Assembly: GCA_018260615.1 (NCBI GenBank)
Contig: JAGWDQ010000060.1
Coordinates: forward strand, 1,981-65,980
Length of the DNA: 64,000 bases
DNA from: Candidatus Altarchaeum sp.
GTDB lineage: Archaea; Altiarchaeota; Altiarchaeia; Altiarchaeales; Altiarchaeaceae
Direction: 5' to 3'
This document shows positions 5,259 through 18,664 of this stretch, in pieces. A model generated the notes under the pieces. That model did not search any database. It was not told where the DNA came from and saw nothing but the letters and a program-made list of their open reading frames with translations. Made by a program: the position numbers and the translations under genes. Within the stretch, counting starts at the first letter, position 1. Each line of letters starts with the position of its first letter.

Positions 5259-5339
5259 ATTAAAATGAATAATGAATTATTAAAGTGAATTTTTAACTTT
5301 TGGTTATTTGTTTTGAATTATACTTTGAGATGAATTTTT

Positions 5340-5870
5340 GTTTTATCAAAAATGCTTCAAGCATTTTTAAATTGTAGAGATTTGAAATACTGAAAATCTG
5401 CAAGATTTTCAATCTTACAAAATGTTCTGAACATTTTGTAAATCTCCGAACGATAGCGAGGTGATTTTTGAATATCTCAAAAATCTTGTAGATTTTTGCG
5501 ATGAATGAAGTAAATTAACTAAAATGGTAAATTTGTTTTTAAATTTCTGAGGTTTAAAATTTCTGTGAGAAATTTTAAATAAAGGTAAAATCTCTGAAAT
5601 TTTATGGTAATTTGTAAAATTTTAGGAGGTGATTTTTGAAATTTTTCGGATAACTCTTTGTCACCTCATTTTTCAAACGATTTTCAAATTGCAGAGATTT
5701 GAAAATTTCCGAACGAAGTGAGGTAAAGTTTGAAAAATTCACGAACGATATCAAAAATGCTTGAAACATTTTTGAATATCCTAAAAACCTTGAAGGTTTT
5801 TACGAAAGTGAGCGGACTTCGTTCGGAGATTTAAAACAAAGTTTTAAATACCCTTCAAATAGTTACTTAA
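5340..5870. repeat. Array of short hairpin-plus-tail repeats (REP/BIME-like)
   Basis: Perfect hairpins with different stems: aaaaatgc/gcattttt (5348-5368), gaaaatct/agattttc (5392-5410), acaaaatgtt/aacattttgt (5417-5439), caaaaatct/agatttttg (5478-5498). They are interleaved with the tail motif ccgaacga[at]ag[ct]gaggt. Confidence 0.7.
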
Positions 5871-6009
5871 AAATTTTGATTACATTTAAAAATTTGTGTA
5901 TTTGATTTTGTCTTTGACCTCAACATTACAATAACAATTCTTGTAGTTATGTTCTTTTATGTTCTTTTTTATTTTTATTTGTATATTTAATTATATTTAA
6001 TGTCTTAAT

Positions 6010-6160
6010 TATTTAATTTATTTATATGAATATCTAATTTATTTATATGAATATCTAATTTATTTATATGAATATCTAATTTATTTATATGAATATCTAA
6101 TTTATTTATATGAATATCTAATTTATTTATATGAATATCTAATTTATTTATATGAATTCC
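6010..6160. repeat. Tandem repeat, 21-bp unit (tatctaatttatttatatgaa), about 6 perfect copies plus degenerate ends
   Basis: Unit starts at 6031, 6052, 6073, 6094, 6115 and 6136. Located in the 1.3-kb divergent smc/ftsZ intergenic region. Confidence 0.9.
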
Positions 6161-6282
6161 AAATTATTTAAGTTTATATAAGTTCATTAGAATATTTAAA
6201 TTCATAATTTAAATTAATAATATATGAAACATAATTTATTACAAAATTTAAAAAAAACAATCAAAAATATAAAAAAGGTAAA

Positions 6283-6453
6283 ATGGGGTTGCAAACACAG
6301 TTATATTTTACGGATGAGGACTCATTAAAAACGCACGAGGCATGGGGCAAGGCGTTAAAGGACTTGGGTAAAGAAGGGTCACAATATGCATTGGCACAAT
6401 TTATTAAAGATGTGTTTTTTTTTCGTCATAAAGGACGAGAAGAAAATTGCTGA
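6283..6453 (+). pseudogene. Small-protein family member (MGLQTQ...), probably frameshifted copy
   Basis: The first 47 codons match the 66-aa ORF at 26845-27045. After the T9 run (6415-6423) there is one extra c relative to the other copy, which shifts the frame and gives an early stop. The alternative frame restores VIKDEKKIAEFTGTQKTKQE. Confidence 0.45.
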
Positions 6454-6597
6454 ATTTACAGGAACACAAAAAACAAAGCAGGAATAAACAACAAATTTAC
6501 TAATTTTAAGAGGCATGAATTAATGTATAGGTACATAATCAATCATTACAAACTATCAGAATAAATATATAATAAACGATAAAATAATAAACAAATT

Positions 6598-9096
6598 TTG
6601 AAAATGGAACCTTTTGTTTACGGAAATAGTGAAGAAGTATTTAAAATGGGAAACCAAAGCAGCAATAAAAATATTGGACAACAAAGATCTACAATTTTGG
6701 GTGCTGAAGGAGTATCTACCGAAAACCCGAAAATATGCGTAGTTGGTGTCGGGGGCGGAGGATGTAATACTATTAGAAGATTATCTGAAATGGGGGTTGC
6801 ACATGAGGTTGAGTTAATAGCAATAAATACTGACATAAAACAATTGCGGATGATAGATGATTTGAGAATAAAGAAAATTTTAATAGGTGCAAAATTAACA
6901 GGGGGACAAGGTGCAGGTGGTTATCCTAATATTGGTGAAGAAGCAGCAGTAGCAAGCAATCAGGATATTGTACAAGCACTTGAAGGGGCACGAATTGTAT
7001 TTATCTCTGCAGGTATGGGAGGCGGAACAGGAACAGGTGGAGCACCCATAGTAGCAAAAATTGCAAGAAATATCGGAGCAATAGTTATAAGTGTTGTAAC
7101 ATTTCCTTTCAAACTTGAGCGTGCAAGGGTTATAAAGGGAAGAGAAGGTATTGATAAGTTAAAGCAGGTCTCACACACAGTCATTGTTTTGGATAATAAC
7201 CTGTTAGTTCAGTATGCACCGAATTTACCGATGGATGAAGCATTTAAAATTGCAGATGATGTTATCGGAAAGGCAATAGACGGAATAACTCATTCTATAC
7301 TTGTTCCAAGTTTAATAAATCTTGATCTTGCTGACTTTATGGCAATAATGAAAACAGGTGGAATGGCAATGATAAGTGTGGGCCGGGGAAGAGGTCCAAA
7401 GAAGATTGAGGATGCAGTAGCAGCAGTTAAAAACCAGCCTTTACTGGAAGTCGATACTATGGGTGCAACAGGTGCTTTGATTCACATTACGGGAGGTTCA
7501 ACGCTTTCGCTGAATGATGCAAATAAAGCAGGAACTAATCTTACAGAAAATGTAAGTCAAAATGCTCCTGTGATATGGGGTGCAAGAGTAAATGAAAAAA
7601 TGGGGGACGAAGTGGAGATTGTTTTAATTATGACAGGAATAAAGAGTAATCTCCTGTCAGGAGAAAGTAATGTTCCAATAGGGAGAAGTAGAATTAATGT
7701 ACAATCCCAACCGGCACAGCAGCAATTTCAACCGCAGCAAACACAGCCAAAAAAAGTATATGAACCAGCATGGCCAGCAGGTGGAGCCGGAAGCTACTCT
7801 CAACCGGAACAACAACAGCCTGGTTATCAGCCACAGAATCAGGGTTATACGCAACCGGAACAGGGATATGGAGTTCAACAAACACAGCCTGGTTATCAGC
7901 AACCCCATGGAAATATCCCTCAACCGCAGCAGGAATATGTACAACTACCAGAAGCACAAACAAGGCAAAGGCCGGTTTTAATTGAAGATGCAGAAGCACT
8001 TGCGAGGGAACAGGAAGCGTTGAAAAATATTTTGGGTGCAGAAGGTATTGAACTTGAAGATCCAAAGATTGATGTAATAGGTGTTGGTGGAGGAGGATGT
8101 AATAGTATTACCCGTCTTTCAGAAGCAGGACTTTCGCCAACATGTAAGAAAAGTACCCGGTTGATTGCTATAAATACGGATAAAAGGGCATTAGTTGAGA
8201 TGGTTAAAGAAGGCAAAGTACCTATTACAAAGGTATTGATAGGGGGAAAGATGACAAGAGGCATGGGAGCAGGCGGTTATCCCGAGGTTGGTGAAAAAGC
8301 AGCAGAAGAGTCCTTTAATCTTATACAGCAAGCAGTGGGAAAGCCCAATCTTGTGTTTTTGGGAATAGGTATGGGCGGTGGAACAGGAACAGGTGCGGGA
8401 CCTGTAGTAGCTAAGATAGCAAAACAGGCAGGTGCAATCGTTGTAGGAATAGTAACCTATCCGTTTAATCTTGAAAGAGCAAGAAAAGAGAAGGCGAAAG
8501 AAGGGATAGCACGACTAATGCAATACTGCGATACTGTTGTTGTAATAGACAATGAGAAATTGCGTACTGTTGTGCCAAATATGCCGATGAATGAGGCATT
8601 TATGTTCGCAGACAAAGTGATTCAGGATGCTGTTCAGGGCATTACAGAGACAATTATGACTCCGAGCTTAATAAATCTGGACTTTGCAGATATAAGATCA
8701 ACAATGGGAAATAAAGAAATTTCTTTGATTTGTGTCGGTGAAGGTGATGGTCCGGATAAGGTCAAGCAGGCAATCTCATCAACATTGAACAGGCCTTTGC
8801 TTGATGTGGATTACAGTGATATTAAAGGTGCATTAATTCACATAACCGGAGGAGCAAATATGACTCTGAATGAAGCACATGCTATTGGAGATGGCATAAG
8901 TAAGAGTGTCAAAAAGGACGCAAATGTTGTATGGGGCGCAAGAATTGATGAAAAACTTGGAGACAAAATTAAAGTAGTAGCAATACTTACGGGTGTAAAA
9001 GGGCTGAGTATTCCTGTTGCAGGAAGTGGGAAGGGCAGTAGATATGCCTCTTCACCAATAAGTATTTTTGATGATCTGGGAATAACCTACTTATAA
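6598..9096 (+). CDS. ftsZ: Tandem-fused double FtsZ (two complete FtsZ cores joined by a Q/P-rich linker)
   Basis: Core 1 has GVGGGGCN, AGMGGGTGTGGAP and SLINLDLAD. Core 2 has GVGGGGCN, IGMGGGTGTGAGP and SLINLDFAD. The low-complexity linker spans about nt 7650-7990. The real start is probably ATG at 6604 or 6646. Confidence 0.9.
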   Translation: MKMEPFVYGNSEEVFKMGNQSSNKNIGQQRSTILGAEGVSTENPKICVVGVGGGGCNTIRRLSEMGVAHEVELIAINTDIKQLRMIDDLRIKKILIGAKLTGGQGAGGYPNIGEEAAVASNQDIVQALEGARIVFISAGMGGGTGTGGAPIVAKIARNIGAIVISVVTFPFKLERARVIKGREGIDKLKQVSHTVIVLDNNLLVQYAPNLPMDEAFKIADDVIGKAIDGITHSILVPSLINLDLADFMAIMKTGGMAMISVGRGRGPKKIEDAVAAVKNQPLLEVDTMGATGALIHITGGSTLSLNDANKAGTNLTENVSQNAPVIWGARVNEKMGDEVEIVLIMTGIKSNLLSGESNVPIGRSRINVQSQPAQQQFQPQQTQPKKVYEPAWPAGGAGSYSQPEQQQPGYQPQNQGYTQPEQGYGVQQTQPGYQQPHGNIPQPQQEYVQLPEAQTRQRPVLIEDAEALAREQEALKNILGAEGIELEDPKIDVIGVGGGGCNSITRLSEAGLSPTCKKSTRLIAINTDKRALVEMVKEGKVPITKVLIGGKMTRGMGAGGYPEVGEKAAEESFNLIQQAVGKPNLVFLGIGMGGGTGTGAGPVVAKIAKQAGAIVVGIVTYPFNLERARKEKAKEGIARLMQYCDTVVVIDNEKLRTVVPNMPMNEAFMFADKVIQDAVQGITETIMTPSLINLDFADIRSTMGNKEISLICVGEGDGPDKVKQAISSTLNRPLLDVDYSDIKGALIHITGGANMTLNEAHAIGDGISKSVKKDANVVWGARIDEKLGDKIKVVAILTGVKGLSIPVAGSGKGSRYASSPISIFDDLGITYL

Positions 9097-9220
9097 GAAC
9101 CACGGGTAATAACAATAAAGGCAGCAAAACCAAAGAAAAATTTATTTTTTAATTTTTTTAATCTTTTTTAATTTTAAATTAACATACTAGTATAAAACAA
9201 ATAACATTAAATTTATAAAA

Positions 9221-10282
9221 ATGGCAGAAGAAATATTTAAAGGACAAGGAATAATCGGAGATATCGGGACTTATGCGGCTCCAAAAATTATGGTAGTTGG
9301 TGCAGGGGGCGCAGGAAGTAATAATATTGAACGACTGGCAATTGCAGGTCTTGGAAATGAAGGAGTAAAGTTAATAGCAACAAACACGGACAAAGTTCAC
9401 CTGATGAATTTAAAAGGAAACATGACGAGGATTTTAATCGGAGCAAAGACCACGGGAGGAATGGGTGCAGGAGGATTTCCTGATGTCGGGGAAGCAGCGG
9501 CAATAGAGAGCAACCAGTTACTTGCCCAACAGATGGAAGGGGTTGATTTGTTATTTTTGACAGCTGGAATGGGTGGAGGAACAGGTACGGGTGCAGCACC
9601 CGTAATAGCAAAAATTGCAAAAGATATGGGTGCTTTGGTTGTTGCAGTTATAACCTTTCCGTTTAAATTAGAAAGAGCAAGAACACAAAAAGCAAGAGAA
9701 GGGATAGAAAACCTGAGAAAGTATGCAGATACGGTTGTTATAATAGATAATAATAAGCTTTTGGAATATGCACCAAATGTTCCCATCAATGATGCATTTG
9801 CAGCTGCGGACAAGATAACAGCTACTTCGGTTAGAGGAATCTCAAAGACAATTTTAGAACCAAGTTTGATTAATATGGATTTCGCCGACCTTAAAGCAGT
9901 TATGACAAACGGAGATATATCAACAATCAGCGTCGGAAGAGGAGCAGGTCCCGATAAGATCAACCAGGCAACAGATGGTGTCTTATATCACCCGCTTCTA
10001 AATATGGAAATTAACAAAGGGCGGGGAGCGTTAATTCATATAACCGGAGGCCCAAATACAAGTTTAAACGATGTTACAAAAGTTGGAGAACTTATAACTC
10101 AAAATTTCCCGCAGGATGCAAATGTAGTATTCGGAGCAAGAGTTGAGCAGGGAATGGGTGACGAGCTGGAAGCAATAGCAATTTTAACAGGTATTTCAGC
10201 GCCGGATATGGTCAAAAGCCCATCGTTCCATGGACAAACAGGTTATGAAAAGAGCAATATAGGTAATATAAGGATGATATAA
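9221..10282 (+). CDS. ftsZ: Cell division protein FtsZ (third FtsZ core in the locus)
   Basis: 353 aa with GAGGAGSN, AGMGGGTGTGAAP and the T7 loop SLINMDFAD. Confidence 0.92.
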   Translation: MAEEIFKGQGIIGDIGTYAAPKIMVVGAGGAGSNNIERLAIAGLGNEGVKLIATNTDKVHLMNLKGNMTRILIGAKTTGGMGAGGFPDVGEAAAIESNQLLAQQMEGVDLLFLTAGMGGGTGTGAAPVIAKIAKDMGALVVAVITFPFKLERARTQKAREGIENLRKYADTVVIIDNNKLLEYAPNVPINDAFAAADKITATSVRGISKTILEPSLINMDFADLKAVMTNGDISTISVGRGAGPDKINQATDGVLYHPLLNMEINKGRGALIHITGGPNTSLNDVTKVGELITQNFPQDANVVFGARVEQGMGDELEAIAILTGISAPDMVKSPSFHGQTGYEKSNIGNIRMI

Positions 10283-13680: not shown

Positions 13681-13715
13681 AAACATAATTGCAATTCCAT
13701 AGAAATTTATAAAAT

Positions 13716-14168
13716 TTATTCGTGAAAATTTTGTAAAATCAAAAATTTATATAATTTTATATTCTGTATTAAGTCATAAGTTGAAAACACAGGTATTTTG
13801 TTTTGTTTCTTAAATGATTTTTCTTCCGACCAGACAGGACACTTAAATTTTACTGCAAGAGCAAAATATTGTATATCTTTTATATGCGGAGACAATTCCT
13901 CCGCTTCTTTTACACATTCGTTGAACTCGTTAAATGGTATAAAGTCAATTTGGTCTTTAATAAATTTAAATGTCTCGCCAAGCACTTCTGAAGATAACTT
14001 GCTTCTTGTGACAATTTCTCCAAAATTTCTGCCGATTTCAAAAAACATAAATTCCGGGGCAATGAATTCGTATCTTTTAAAAGAAGCATTTGATAAAAAT
14101 ACATCAAATGACCCGCTTTTTGATAATAATGCAGAAAGCACTTCATTGGTATCAACCACTAATAACAT
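13716..14168 (-). CDS. PIN-domain protein (VapC-like toxin)
   Basis: N-terminal LLVVDTNEVLSALL and a PIN-like acidic residue pattern. It sits directly downstream of a small antitoxin-like ORF. Confidence 0.7.
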   Translation of the reverse strand: MLLVVDTNEVLSALLSKSGSFDVFLSNASFKRYEFIAPEFMFFEIGRNFGEIVTRSKLSSEVLGETFKFIKDQIDFIPFNEFNECVKEAEELSPHIKDIQYFALAVKFKCPVWSEEKSFKKQNKIPVFSTYDLIQNIKLYKFLILQNFHE

Positions 14169-14174
14169 TTTAAT

Positions 14175-14411
14175 TTATCCTGATTGTATGGATTCTATAA
14201 ATCTCCTGGAGAGGTCTTTATTGATTTTATCAGATAGTTCCTTTACATCACATTCTGTAAATTTACTCCCTGATAATTTTTCCTTTAACTCCAACATTTT
14301 TTCTATTTCTGACTTGAGCAGCCTTCTTACAACCAGATTCCAGTTTACTCCTGAAAATTCTTTCATATCCTGTTCCAGTTCTTCGGGGATAGCCACAACT
14401 AATTCGGCCAT
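14175..14411 (-). CDS. Putative antitoxin partner of the PIN protein
   Basis: 78-aa charged helical protein 6 nt upstream of the PIN gene and co-directional with it. Confidence 0.55.
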   Translation of the reverse strand: MAELVVAIPEELEQDMKEFSGVNWNLVVRRLLKSEIEKMLELKEKLSGSKFTECDVKELSDKINKDLSRRFIESIQSG

Positions 14412-14804
14412 GTTAAGTAATCAGATTAAGTTAGATTATAAATAATTAAATTGTCATTAATTAAGAATAACTAATATTGAATTACTAAAACAGGAAGTTC
14501 CATATTTATATTTTAATGTTAATTTTTTAATGTTAATTTGACAATGGATTAATAAAATTTTCAAAACGCAAGACATCAGTTTGTAATAGAAAATAACTTA
14601 TCTTTATATCAAAAATGACGGATATTAACAAGATCGAAAAACAAAAGTGATTGAACAACAACAAGAAATTTATGCCGATGAGGAAATTTATGAAATTTTG
14701 CACCCCGCAGTTAAGGAATTGTTTAATTAAAAATGCCAAATATCAAAATTCATATATGGTTAACACAATCTAATTTATAGCCCAAATACAAAAAATAGGG
14801 AAAG

Positions 14805-15290
14805 ATGAAAAATAAAACTAAAAACAGGTTGGAGCGAAAGTGGCAGAATTTGCCATTACATCATATAGATGCGTGTGTTGTAATAGAAGTTTTAATACAA
14901 CAAAAAGAATGCGAAGATTGTAAAAATTATTTGAACAAGGTTGGCTACAAATGCAGGAGTGCTTTATCTGTTTCTGCTCTTGGTGAAATAGTTATGTGTT
15001 CAATCAAAAAATTTGAGGAAGAAACAGAAGGCGGCAAAGTATCACTTTTTATTACTGACTTAGTAAATAAAAGAAAAATTGATTTTTCAGCACCGCAATT
15101 TGAGACATATGCAATAGTTGAAAAAATAAAAAAAATTGAAAGCAGAGTAGAACCAATGGATGCTTTAAATCTCGCAACTGCAATAACAGAAAACGCTGAT
15201 GTGTTTGTAACAATGGATAGCAAACTCGTGGGAAATAAGAAACTTGAATCCGCGTTTAAAATCAAAATTAAACACCCGCGCGATGTGTAG
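14805..15290 (+). CDS. PIN-domain protein
   Basis: Shows the PIN acidic quartet pattern: HHIDACVVIE, GEIV, MDALNLATAI, FVTMDSKL. Confidence 0.65.
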   Translation: MKNKTKNRLERKWQNLPLHHIDACVVIEVLIQQKECEDCKNYLNKVGYKCRSALSVSALGEIVMCSIKKFEEETEGGKVSLFITDLVNKRKIDFSAPQFETYAIVEKIKKIESRVEPMDALNLATAITENADVFVTMDSKLVGNKKLESAFKIKIKHPRDV

Positions 15291-15584
15291 TTTCTCTCCT
15301 CATTCTTTTTATAAGTTCTACTGCACTTTCATCTTTGTATTCGTCTTGTTTGATGCTTTTGTGAATGCTTTCCAACAGATCATCCAGTTTGGGATCTCCA
15401 AATCCTGTTTTTTTGTGTTCCATTTTATAAAATTGATGAAAAAATTTGATATTAATTAAGATTGAACTTAAATATAGAAATAAAAAACCTGAATTTGCCT
15501 TTGTAACAAGAAAAGCCCTTCGGGCAAATCTTACTGAAATCTTTGAGATTTCAATCTTTAAAAATCTGTAAGATTTTGAAATAA

Positions 15585-15745
15585 CTAAAATTGTATCCTC
15601 TCAAAATTTCAGGGCAATTTTAAATTTATAATTTAAAATACACGAAGAAAGTGAGCGTAAATATAAAAATTTAGTATTTTTCACTCGTAAAGTAGATATA
15701 GATAATTCAATTTACCTTGTTTTATTGAGAGGATACTAAAATTGT
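15585..15745. repeat. MITE-like element with terminal inverted repeats (gtatcctctcaa / ttgagaggatac)
   Basis: Left TIR at 15593-15604 and right TIR at 15725-15736. Only one copy in the window. Confidence 0.45.
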
Positions 15746-15905
15746 TATTTTCAAAACGTAGAGTTTTGAAAATATCTGAGCAACAGCGAGGTGATTTTCA
15801 AAAACGAAGTTTTTGAAAATATGAGAGCGAAGCGATTTCAAACTTGTTTGAAATACGGGAACGAAGTGAACGTAACTTATTTTCAAAACGCAGAGATTTG
15901 GAAAT
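15745..15905. repeat. Hairpin-plus-tail repeat array (four units)
   Basis: Hairpin units are attttcaaaa..ttttgaaaat, attttcaaaaac..gtttttgaaaat and atttcaaac..gtttgaaat. Each is followed by a tail such as gagcaacagcgaggtg, gagcgaagcg or gaacgaagtgaacg. Confidence 0.7.
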
Positions 15906-16024
15906 ATCCAAATGAAATGGGGTTATACTTTCCAGATAAGAGAATCTTATACTTTCCCGATAAGTAAATCGCATACTATTTATAATACTATAAAAACATA
16001 AATCTTTAAGATTGAAAAACAAAA

Positions 16025-18664
16025 GTGATTGAACAACAGCAGGAAATTTATACTGACGAGGAAATTTATAAAATTTTGCACACGATAGTAAGGGAATGGT
16101 TTATGGCTAAATTTGGTAAATTTTCCGTTCCCCAGAAGTATGCCGTAATGGATATCCATAATCGGCAAAATGTTTTGATTTCTTCTCCGACCGGAAGCGG
16201 GAAAACACTTGCAGCATTTCTTTCAATTTTAAATGAATTAATCAAACTTGCAGACAGGAACGAACTGGAAGATAAGGTCTATTGTATTTATATTTCTCCG
16301 TTAAAAGCACTTGATAATGATGTTGAGAAAAATTTAAATGAGCCGTTAAATGAGCTTGAAAAAATTTCGGGAAAAAAATTTGGCATCAGGGTTGCAGTAA
16401 GGACAGGAGATACAACGCAAACAAAGAGAACTGAAATGTTAAAAAAGACCCCCCACATATTAATAACAACTCCTGAAACGCTTGCAATAGTTCTTTGTGC
16501 CCCTAAATTTAAGGAGAAATTAAAAGATGTAAAGTATGTTGTCGTTGATGAAATTCATTCTCTTGCGGAAAACAAAAGAGGAGTACACTTAACTCTAACA
16601 CTTGAACGACTGCAAAATTTAGCCGGAAGATGGACAAGAATCGGATTAAGTGCAACGGTTGCACCGCTTGAAAAAATAGCCGAATTTTTGGCCGGATATG
16701 AAAGAGGAAAACCAAGGGACTGCAAGATTGTTGATGTAAATTTTTTAAAGCAGATGGATATTAAGGTTGTTTGTCCGGTTGAAAATATAATGGAGTCCAC
16801 TCCGGAAGAGTTAAGTAATGCCACTTATTCCCTGCTGCACCGCCTGATTCAGGAACACAAAACAACATTAGTATTCACAAATACAAGAAGCGGGACAGAA
16901 AGCGTTATATTTCATTTAAAGGAGAAATTTAAAAATTTTTACAATGACAATATAATGGCTCATCATTCCTCGCTTTCAAAGGAACTGCGATTGGAAGCTG
17001 AAAATAAATTAAAGGAAGGAAAATTAAAGGCGATTGTCAGCAGCACATCACTCGAACTTGGCATTGATATTGGCTATATTGATTTGGTTGTTCTTATAAG
17101 TTCTCCGAAATCAGTTGCGAGGGCACTCCAGCGAATCGGACGAAGTGGACATCGTTTGCATGAAAAATCAAATGGAATAATTATCGTTATTGACAGGGAT
17201 GACCTTGTTGAATGCGCAGTAATACTTAAAAACGCCGTTGAAGGAAGGATTGACGAAATTGATATTCCTCAAAATTGTCTTGATGTTCTTTCGCAGCAAA
17301 TTTTCGGGATGGCAATTGAAGATGACTGGGATATTGATAATGCTTATGATTTAATAAAGAGAAGTTACTGCTACAAAAATTTATCAAAAGACGATTTTAT
17401 GGGCGTGATGAGTTATCTTGCCGGAGAGTACAGCAGTTTAGAAGAAAGATATGTTTACGGAAAAATCTGGCTCAATTACGAAAAAAATTTATTCGGGAGA
17501 AGGGGAAAATTAGCAAGGGTTCTGTACTCAACAAATATTGGCACGATTCCCGATGAGTCATTCGTTCTCGTTAAATTAGCAAGTGAAAATAAAGTAATCG
17601 GAAAGATTGATGAGGACTTTCTTGAAAAATTAAAGAGCAAGGATATATTTGTTCTTGGCGGAAAAATTTACAGATTTGAATATACTCGGGGAATGATTGC
17701 TTATGTTAATAATTGCTCTGGACCTCCGACAATTCCGTCATGGTTTTCAGAACAATTGCCGTTATCTTTCGGACTCGCACTTGAAATTCAGAAATTTCGC
17801 TCGCTTTTAGAGGAAAAATTTAAAACATCGGATAAAAATTTAATAATAAAATTTATCGCCGACTATTTATATGTTGATTTCAATGCGGCAAATTCGGTCT
17901 ATGAATATTTCAGGGAGCAGTTTTTATACGCAAAAATTCCGCATGCCAGTCGTCTGCTCATTGAGTTTTACACCGGCTACGGAAACCGGAAATTTGTTAT
18001 ATTTCATTCATTATTCGGAAAAAGGGTCAATGATGCTTTATCAAGGGCGATTGCTTATATCATTTCAAAGACGGAAAGAAAGGACATAGGTATTTCAATA
18101 TCTGATAATGGATTCTATTTAAGTGCTGAGGGAAAGATTAAGGCGCTGCAGGCATTTGAAAATTTAAATCCGGAAAATCTGGTGGAAATTTTAATTAAGG
18201 CAATTGACAAAACAGAGGTATTGACGAGAAGATTCAGGCACTGTGCGGGTCGTTCTCTGATGATTTTGAGACAGTATAAAGGAGTGCGAAAGAGCGTGGG
18301 GAAGCAGCAGTTTAGCAGTAAAATTTTGCTGAATTTTGTGAAGGAACTGAATGAAAATTTTCCCATTTTGAAGGAAGCGAGGAGAGAGGTTATTGAGGAT
18401 TTTATGGATGTGAAAAATGCAGGTAAAATACTAAGGTGGATCGGGGAAGGAAGGATTAAAGTTGAATATATTAATACGACAATTCCTTCGCCGTTTGCAT
18501 TTAATTTAGTTGCACAGGGATATATGGATGTTCTGAAGTATGAAGAGCGGATTGAGTTTATAAGGAGGATGCATAAGGCAATACTTGAAGCGATAAAGTA
18601 TAAGGATAACGAATATAAGGATAACGAAATGAATAATTCAGAAGAAAATTTTGGTTTGGGATAA
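16025..18664 (+). CDS. lhr: Lhr-type ATP-dependent DEAD/DEAH-box helicase
   Basis: 879 aa with PTGSGKT (motif I), VVVDEIH (motif II), [11 protein letters not shown] and QRIGRSGH (motif VI), plus a long Lhr-like C-terminal extension. GTG start. Confidence 0.9.

Follow-up and report, generated by a model that had tools for sequence, protein, structure and literature searches.

The subject of this analysis is a stretch of 64,000 nucleotides from a genome of Candidatus Altarchaeum sp. (assembly GCA_018260615.1, contig JAGWDQ010000060.1, positions 1,981 to 65,980 of the forward strand), referred to here as the window, and in particular an ftsZ locus within it that encodes two FtsZ cores in one polypeptide followed by a third, stand-alone FtsZ (FtsZ3). 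The double ftsZ lies in an open reading frame (ORF) at 6598..9096 (+), which comprises 832 codons and opens at a TTG in the ORF list. Orthologues begin with MEPF, which makes the ATG at 6604 the probable start and places the fused ftsZ-ftsZ gene at 6604..9096 (+), with 830 codons and a stop. The 830-residue product is 100% identical to GenBank entry PKP60843.1 (P0001), recorded as a 'hypothetical protein' from Candidatus Altiarchaeales archaeon HGW-Altiarchaeales-1. Searches with Pfam models returned two stretches each for Tubulin (PF00091; 4.7e-79, 265.5 bits against a cut-off of 33) and FtsZ_C (PF12327; 8.1e-55, 183.6 bits against a cut-off of 27), and the NCBIfam ftsZ equivalog TIGR00065 was likewise matched in two stretches, at 678.7 bits (cut-off 295.2).

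The borders of the two cores were taken from the envelopes of a local hidden Markov model (HMM) search, and residues are numbered from the first of the 832 codons. Core 1 (6718..7650, +; residues 41-351) carries the T1 loop GVGGGGCN, a G-box GGGTGTG at nt 7018-7038 (residue 141) and the T7 loop SLINLDLAD at nt 7309-7335 (residue 238, with NLDLAD at 241-246). Core 2 (8053..9006, +; residues 486-803) has a second copy of GVGGGGCN, a G-box at nt 8374-8394 (residue 593) and the T7 loop SLINLDFAD at nt 8665-8691 (residue 690, with NLDFAD at 693-698). Each core is preceded by an ILGAEG lead, at residues 33 and 478. An initial annotation, made from the letters of the DNA, had described one 832-codon ORF with two complete FtsZ cores, these three motifs in each core and a similar lead before each; the ORF list, Pfam, TIGR00065 and HMM results bear this out in full. 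Moreover, the G-box, the T1 loop and the N.D..D residues of the T7 loop are invariant in both cores of all eight aligned fusions. At the sequence level the fusion is thus shown to be a single reading frame.

The stand-alone third ftsZ lies at 9221..10282 (+) and encodes 353 residues with Tubulin and FtsZ_C domains (PF00091, 143.3 bits; PF12327, 70.3 bits; TIGR00065, 335.7 bits), the motifs GGGTGTG and NMDFAD, and the lead IIGDIGT. The features that define membership of FtsZ, namely both Pfam domains, a TIGR00065 score above cut-off, GGGTG(T/S)G and a T7 loop of the form N.D..(D/E), are present in the fusion and in FtsZ3. Between the two genes is an AT-rich spacer (9097..9220, unstranded) of 124 nt, rather than the 125 nt given initially for the distance to the downstream gene, in which direct reading finds runs of T followed by a TATA-like sequence. 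By inference only, these could serve as terminator and promoter; a scan for sigma-70 promoters and hairpins, a model not applicable to archaea, returned fewer sites than in shuffled sequence. No other tubulin-family ORF was found in the window, and tRNA and Rfam scans of the window gave no matches.

The inter-core linker (7651..8052, +) spans 134 residues between the core envelopes and is marked out by predicted disorder and by composition. It opens with a short conserved segment, NLLSGESNVPIGRSRINV, continues into a low-complexity stretch rich in Q, P, G and Y (about nt 7711-7962) and closes with a conserved helix, EDAEALAREQEALKN (nt 7993-8031), followed by the ILGAEG lead of core 2. The 115 residues from 356 to 470 include 29 Q, 16 P, 10 G and 7 Y, and QPGYQ occurs twice in the linker region. 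The composition and the repeated QPGYQ agree with the initial description of about 110 low-complexity residues. A Met-free gap had also been described, with the consequence that core 2 could not start at an internal ATG. The gap exists, from residue 345 to 535 (initially given as roughly 345 to 545), but start-capable TTG codons lie just before core 2 and several orthologues have an ATG at the Leu of ILGAEG, neither being conserved as a start. Tandem Repeats Finder detected no tandem DNA repeat in the linker.

The initial annotation had proposed a search for the same fusion in related genomes, and it was found in dozens of contigs and in two more distant lineages. An identical 830-residue protein is present on four contigs, the two shown being from separate JGI and NCBI assemblies. 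Fusions of the A. hamiconexum type (826 residues) and the MSI type (816 residues) are represented by many distinct full-length sequences, with up to 25, 8, 7 and 6 contigs each. Full-length orthologues are 790-834 residues long and show 76-86% identity; the sites represented include Crystal Geyser, the MSI spring and A3. Every Altiarchaeum-type locus with a contig that continues past the fusion has the order of double ftsZ then third ftsZ; the contig of L027 stops 88 nt after the fusion gene. An FtsZ3 orthologue lies directly downstream in L001, L002 and L021-L026.

The more distant relatives show related arrangements. In L002 a 751-residue fusion (P0009) is followed by a further FtsZ (P0131), which gives the same three-core layout. 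In WOR_SM1_79 a 744-residue fusion (P0010) is followed by an FtsZ of 328 residues, and WOR_SM1_86-2 encodes a fused protein of 781 residues (P0427). The three cores of the window and those of L002 are reciprocal best matches (core 1, 61%; core 2, 57%; FtsZ3, 66% identity), which places both the triplication and the fusion before that split. For the WOR_SM1 cores, clear one-to-one orthologues are not evident, nor are these cores closest to each other (40-47%); from the shared synteny, the WOR_SM1 and Altiarchaeum fusions may be of one origin. Other Altiarchaeota have a lone single ftsZ (P0140).

Selection on the fused gene was estimated as the ratio of nonsynonymous to synonymous substitution (dN/dS) by the method of Nei and Gojobori (NG86), comparing the window with A. 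hamiconexum. The ratio was lowest in FtsZ3 (0.11), followed by core 2 (0.14) and core 1 (0.17), and highest in the linker (0.29), where third-codon-position changes are in excess. In a sliding-window comparison of six orthologues, the proportion of nonsynonymous differences (pN) was below that of synonymous differences (pS) across the entire linker. That the linker is kept in frame with a dN/dS of 0.29 speaks for its translation. Comparative sequence evidence of this kind supports a real and conserved fusion that is subject to purifying selection.

Across orthologues the linker varies from 56 to 138 residues, and in the alignment of eight fusions all its indels are in frame. It measures 56 residues in P0009 and 98 in P0010, where its composition is quite unlike the Q/P/G/Y-rich linker of Altiarchaeum. 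In an AlphaFold2 model the predicted local distance difference test (pLDDT) score of the linker is below 50 except in the helix at residues 466-478. The earlier suggestion that the linker is the former disordered C-terminal tail of core 1 agrees with its variable length, its low pLDDT and its weak constraint, and its behaviour fits that of a disordered FtsZ C-terminal linker. The long disordered C-terminal linkers of bacterial FtsZ are similarly of low complexity, variable in length and weakly constrained, and the top non-Altiarchaeal matches of a full-length fusion query are long-linker FtsZs. The bacterial linker, however, ends in a short partner-binding peptide, whereas in the Altiarchaeales a whole further FtsZ follows it. 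About 18 residues past core 1, the Altiarchaeum fusions share a conserved PIGRSRINV, which may be a relic of the C-terminal peptide that core 1 once had, the resemblance being weak.

The C-terminal tail of the fusion (9007..9093, +) ends in a conserved IFDDLGITYL, and an alignment of tails shows that (I/L)F.(D/E)(L/M)GITYL ends the fusion in all Altiarchaeum orthologues. The GID motif at the C-terminus of archaeal FtsZ is a SepF-binding element (PMC8178401, PMC12583498), and the end of the fusion resembles it in sequence, with GIT in place of GID; P0009 and P0010 lack the GITYL end. The tail of FtsZ3 ends in NIGNIRMI, of which the conserved form is G(N/D)IR(M/Y)(I/L). Within the fusion, a free C-terminal GID-like peptide is kept by core 2 only, and the tail of core 1 is now a tether of 56-138 residues.

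What kind of FtsZ the three cores represent was addressed by scores, motifs and trees. Core 1, core 2 and FtsZ3 are about equidistant from one another (51.5-52.6% pairwise identity). Two archaeal references were used: a Haloferax FtsZ2 (an orthologue of HVO_0581), recovered by scanning genomes with a peptide sequence given by Liao et al., and FtsZ1 from M. jannaschii (MJ0370 / 1FSZ), taken from the solved-structure alignment. Bit scores against FtsZ2 and FtsZ1, respectively, were 252 and 222 for core 1, 265 and 238 for core 2, and 254 and 211 for FtsZ3. The motif that follows strand S5, PF.LER(A/S)R, is shared by all three cores, related single FtsZs of DPANN archaea and Haloferax FtsZ2 (there PFNVERAR), while sequences on the FtsZ1 side and those of bacteria have PF..EG..R. 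Solved structures place M. jannaschii FtsZ1 as the top match of all three cores; no identifiable FtsZ2 is among those matches, so they do not discriminate between FtsZ1 and FtsZ2.

Neighbour-joining (NJ) trees, a distance method, were built from 395 cores and from a focused set of 54. Core 1, core 2 and FtsZ3 each form a clade with 73-87% bootstrap, all on the FtsZ2 side and apart from the group of M. jannaschii FtsZ1, but deep nodes are weak (16-53%): monophyly of the three clades received 18-20% and a grouping of core 1 with FtsZ3 47-50%, too little for NJ to order the duplications. In published maximum-likelihood (ML) trees (PMC9871819), OIQ05591.1 (core 2) and OIQ05590.1 (FtsZ3), from one Altiarchaeum genome, are sisters, a pairing to which every examined tree file except one gives 60-100% support. 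Both fall within a Micrarchaeota/Altiarchaeota group discussed there under FtsZ2, as does a chimeric row derived from the fusion.

All three cores are therefore assigned to the FtsZ2 type with moderate confidence, the deep bootstraps being low, and by this classification the fused pair is two members of a lineage-specific FtsZ2-type triplet. A canonical FtsZ1-FtsZ2 pair, the background against which the locus was first described, is not supported: the bit scores, the PF.LER(A/S)R motif and both the NJ and the published ML placement speak against it. Tandem duplication followed by fusion had also been proposed. The paralogues share a lead of the form (I/L)(I/L)G(A/D)(E/I)G, FtsZ3 included, which is compatible with such a history. 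Core 1 and core 2 are, however, not mutual closest relatives, so the data do not establish that a single gene was simply duplicated in tandem. Membership of CetZ was rejected, as all cores pass TIGR00065 and PF12327 and their best solved-structure matches are FtsZ. The same genome does encode CetZ-like proteins (PKP61415.1 and PKP60920.1), which are different proteins from outside the window.

Comparison with archaeal FtsZ2 (Haloferax volcanii HVO_0581; Liao et al. 2021, Pende et al. 2021) shows that each core is likewise a full FtsZ; the differences are that two cores are covalently joined here and that three paralogues share one locus. As in archaea with the dual FtsZ1 and FtsZ2 system, several FtsZ paralogues would presumably work in one ring, and in that system the FtsZ C-terminal peptide binds SepF. 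There, however, the two are separate polypeptides from unlinked genes, whereas the linked pair and the third copy in the Altiarchaeales are all FtsZ2-like.

A fusion-derived profile, run against 1.84 billion representative proteins, gave 7,123 FtsZ-like matches below 1e-30. Among the best 150 of the 7,123, together with the matches of two earlier protein searches, only four clusters have two near-complete cores: the Altiarchaeum fusions, those of WOR_SM1, gene models from Closterium and a 731-residue family with degenerate motifs. A fifth fused protein, P0009, came from a word-indexed search. The Closterium (charophyte alga) gene models (P0242, P0385-P0388) are 729-861 residues long, come from several strains and have two FtsZ cores joined by a proline-rich linker; the cores are of chloroplast/cyanobacterial type and by eye look closely similar to each other. 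These may be either a real plastid-division fusion or merged tandem genes. The 731-residue family (P0363, P0389-P0394), from metagenomes and assemblies, has two FtsZ-like cores with a degenerate G-box (GLGGGTGSG) and T7 loop, and its variants occur on up to 19 and 15 contigs; it looks like a separate case of a double tubulin-fold protein. The Closterium and P0363 proteins are related to the Altiarchaeales fusion only as FtsZ. A natural tandem FtsZ fusion is very rare.

Other unusual FtsZ architectures were noticed as well. P0032 (1309 residues) and P0342 (1278 residues) have a complete N-terminal FtsZ core and a long middle section, with an AAA-type match (PF13401) in P0032; their C-terminal stretch, as read from the sequence, has a degenerate T7-like motif and recalls the C-terminal half of FtsZ. 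P0341 (733 residues) is archaeal FtsZ1-like, with its G-box (GLGGG...TGTGSAP) split by an insertion of ~360 residues that ends in HN and looks like an intein.

In the literature searched, which mostly leaves out subscription journals, neither a natural tandem FtsZ nor the Altiarchaeales fusion is described, although an earlier mention is possible. Where FtsZ comes up in papers on Altiarchaeum, it is only as a ring or a marker, and Pende et al. list the WOR_SM1 fusion plainly as an FtsZ homologue. In public records the fusion is annotated inconsistently, as 'hypothetical protein', as 'FtsZ' or as a fragment with core 2 only. In the supplement of Santana-Molina et al. 2023 (PMC9871819), the trimmed alignment row of PKP60843.1 is a chimera that begins within core 1 and switches midway to core 2, and OIQ05591.1 in the same FtsZ dataset is core 2 only. 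Such chimeric or truncated entries can distort archaeal FtsZ1/FtsZ2 trees and could affect the placement of Altiarchaeota.

The reading favoured here, to which a probability of roughly 60% is given, is that the fusion is a covalent tandem of two different FtsZ2-type subunits, a pre-linked two-subunit protomer, that works alongside a third FtsZ2-type paralogue. The fused protein would enter the division ring as such a protomer. Its tether would keep the two cores at high local concentration and in a fixed 1:1 ratio, and would favour a head-to-tail contact between core 1 and core 2, lowering the barrier to filament nucleation. The tandem may co-polymerise with itself and probably with FtsZ3. There would be one membrane or SepF anchor for every two cores on the fusion, in addition to the tail of FtsZ3 itself. 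Because both T7 loops are intact, GTP hydrolysis should be possible at both inter-subunit interfaces and the polymer could be dynamic at every one, unlike that of alpha/beta-tubulin. FtsZ rings have been reported in cells of Ca. Altiarchaeum hamiconexum (PMC4500143), and ftsZ transcripts have been detected (PMC12133352). The earlier proposal that the fusion would fix the order and stoichiometry of subunits in the polymer is plausible.

Several points weigh against the pre-linked protomer. The product of ~90 kDa and its polymerisation are predictions from the sequence. Modelling of core contacts had been suggested, and AlphaFold2 on the whole fusion (from an alignment of eight sequences) gave a mean pLDDT of 58.8 and a predicted template modelling (pTM) score of 0.42, too weak to show any contact between the cores; the model was used for secondary structure and linker disorder only. 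A linker of at least 56 residues would permit head-to-tail, tail-to-head and side-by-side arrangements, so that none of the three is favoured by linker length. Just before core 2 there are codons that could serve as starts, TTG in the window and ATG in some orthologues, and two GenBank records consist of core 2 alone, which makes a separate core 2 product conceivable. Finally, the NJ trees do not discriminate between a shared and a separate origin of the WOR_SM1 and Altiarchaeum fusions.

A more specific form of the protomer reading is rather less likely than not: the fusion may be a prokaryotic and covalent equivalent of the tubulin heterodimer, with core 1 and core 2 docked head to tail within one molecule. 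Protofilaments would then alternate strictly between the two cores and repeat every two subunits, FtsZ3 being a third, separately dosed component, and the three-core, FtsZ2-only machinery could be an adaptation to dividing the unusual double-membrane envelope of the Altiarchaeales. The likeness to alpha/beta-tubulin that had been drawn for the fusion bears on this form, and it holds in part. Alpha/beta-tubulin and bacterial BtubA/B also consist of two diverged paralogous subunits in an obligate 1:1 ratio, which would make them a functional analogy only, with the ratio secured in the Altiarchaeales by the covalent link. The tubulin dimer is non-covalent, whereas the Altiarchaeales pair is covalent and its cores are FtsZ, not tubulin. 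In tubulin, one of the GTP sites is non-hydrolysing, the T7 loop of the partner lacking the catalytic acid. No such silent nucleotide site within the dimer is found here: N.D..D is present in both T7 loops and the GTP pockets are intact in all eight fusions.

A tethered pair could also act between filaments rather than along one. If the two cores of one molecule joined different protofilaments, the fusion would be a built-in bundler that gives paired or networked filaments. The tether is long and disordered (56-138 residues), so that intramolecular contact is not forced, and core 1 and core 2, at 51% identity, are as distant from each other as each is from FtsZ3, so that each could prefer its own kind. 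The tether, however, raises the local concentration for in-line contact too, and the linker sequence is poorly conserved outside Altiarchaeum and gives no hint of a defined spacing. Cross-linking is therefore considered rather unlikely.

It is improbable that the ORF serves mainly for co-expression and yields two proteins, by internal initiation before core 2 or by proteolysis of the linker. Potential internal starts do exist in the window, with TTG at the L of EALK and at that of NILGAEG, and A. hamiconexum-type orthologues have an ATG at the NILGAEG site; OIQ05591.1 (353 residues) and OQX20994.1 (358 residues) are annotated as core 2 alone. Yet across six orthologues the codon at the NILGAEG site is TTG, ATG, TTG, ATG, TTA and TTA, and the EALK site is TTA in L025. 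In the six-orthologue profile, whose mean pS is 0.457, pS just ahead of core 2 is 0.40-0.49, so that no synonymous trough is seen there. OIQ05591.1 starts at an internal ATG on a 5.1-kb contig and is probably truncated. OQX20994.1 starts at an internal TTG on a 5.7-kb contig from A3, and the JGI call on a 5.7-kb contig is of 834 residues. Moreover, an operon would suffice for co-expression, as with ftsZ3, and the linker dN/dS of 0.29 argues for its translation. A regulatory element before core 2 was considered separately and rejected, since the low synonymous change seen over 22 codons between two species is gone in the six-orthologue profile and the start codons are not conserved.

There is a slimmer chance still that one core does not polymerise and acts in regulation or capping, the filament being built by the other. 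In bacteria, FtsZ paralogues that are duplicated or truncated are reported to act as modulators, and core 1 has lost its free C-terminal peptide, but both cores keep every GTP-binding and T7 residue in all lineages and their dN/dS values are similarly low (0.17 and 0.14). Last, an assembly or annotation artefact, with adjacent ftsZ genes merged through a lost stop or frameshift, is effectively refuted: the window has at least one homopolymer indel (9 T against 8 T, in a small upstream ORF), but the open frame is repeated in dozens of independent contigs from several sites and species, the linker has in-frame indels only and a coding-type substitution pattern, and the fusion is kept in lineages at only 40-55% identity.

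The small ORF lies upstream of the fusion at 6283..6487 (+) and belongs to a conserved family of 66-68 residues (MGLQTQLYFTDEDSLKTHEAWGKALKDLGKEG...). In the window it is frameshifted and ends at 6453: a run of 9 T at ~6415-6423, against 8 T in two further assemblies of this species, gives 56 residues instead of 67. Either the extra T stems from a homopolymer error in the assembly, or it is genuine and marks a strain or phase variant. The ORF is called upstream of the fusion in L019/L020, L021-L023, L024, L025 and L002 (9681-9884 in L019, 8710-8913 in L021 and 9838-10044 in L002), and the family is confined to 12 clusters, all Altiarchaeum-like; WOR_SM1_79 has an unrelated ORF of 69 residues at this position. 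The small ORF sits as cdrS/parD does relative to ftsZ2 in Euryarchaeota. Searches gave no support for an identity as CdrS, a ribbon-helix-helix (RHH) protein: Pfam returned no match (for RHH, at E<=10), BLASTP detected nothing in common with Haloferax CdrS, and no similar fold was found in the PDB. The Haloferax protein, as a positive control, matches RHH_1 at 2e-8. AlphaFold2 predicts three helices and a disordered N-terminus for the small ORF product, which neither points to an RHH fold nor speaks against one.

Further upstream, between smc and the small ORF, is a perfect 21-bp tandem repeat, TATCTAATTTATTTATATGAA, in about 7 copies (~5995-6165). Because L019 has two such arrays (9177-9328 and 9429-9568, with 7.2 and 6.7 copies), the assemblies differ in length by about 231 nt. 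The array could be iteron-like or regulatory, or a collapsed repeat. Dispersed direct and inverted repeats of 15-38 nt occur at 5335-5840, inside ~1 kb without an ORF of at least 60 residues. They include copies resembling AAATCTCCGAACGA at 5440, 5703 and 5735, an inverted copy at 5819-5836 of the arm at 5436-5453, and a 38-nt repeat at 5464 and 5768; this cluster had no Rfam match at gathering thresholds. A few kb downstream of the ftsZ locus are toxin-antitoxin-type genes (PIN_2, RHH_12 and PIN; ~13716-15290, and 17113-18687 in L019), and L019 has DUF433 and PIN_10 genes upstream of it. In L002, genes for ribosomal proteins S8, L6, L32e, L19e, L18/L5e and S5 (13703-17162) directly follow the ftsZ cluster; a ribosomal-protein gene context has been described for ftsZ1 rather than ftsZ2 (Pende et al.).

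The Altiarchaeales are abundant subsurface carbon fixers with a double membrane and have no stable laboratory culture, so that sequence and a small number of micrographs are all that informs on their division machinery. Head-to-tail assembly is common to FtsZ and tubulin, but a fixed two-subunit block is found only in tubulin. A fused pair of diverged FtsZs offers a system for the effects of tethering on nucleation, treadmilling and GTP turnover, and also lets one ask whether paralogues alternate in a filament and how a ring behaves mechanically with one anchor for every two subunits. Because the fusion is conserved, is under selection and has both catalytic loops intact, such questions can be put to it directly. 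If the alternating-protofilament reading is true, the Altiarchaeales fusion would be a natural experiment in the origin of subunit pairing in the FtsZ/tubulin family.

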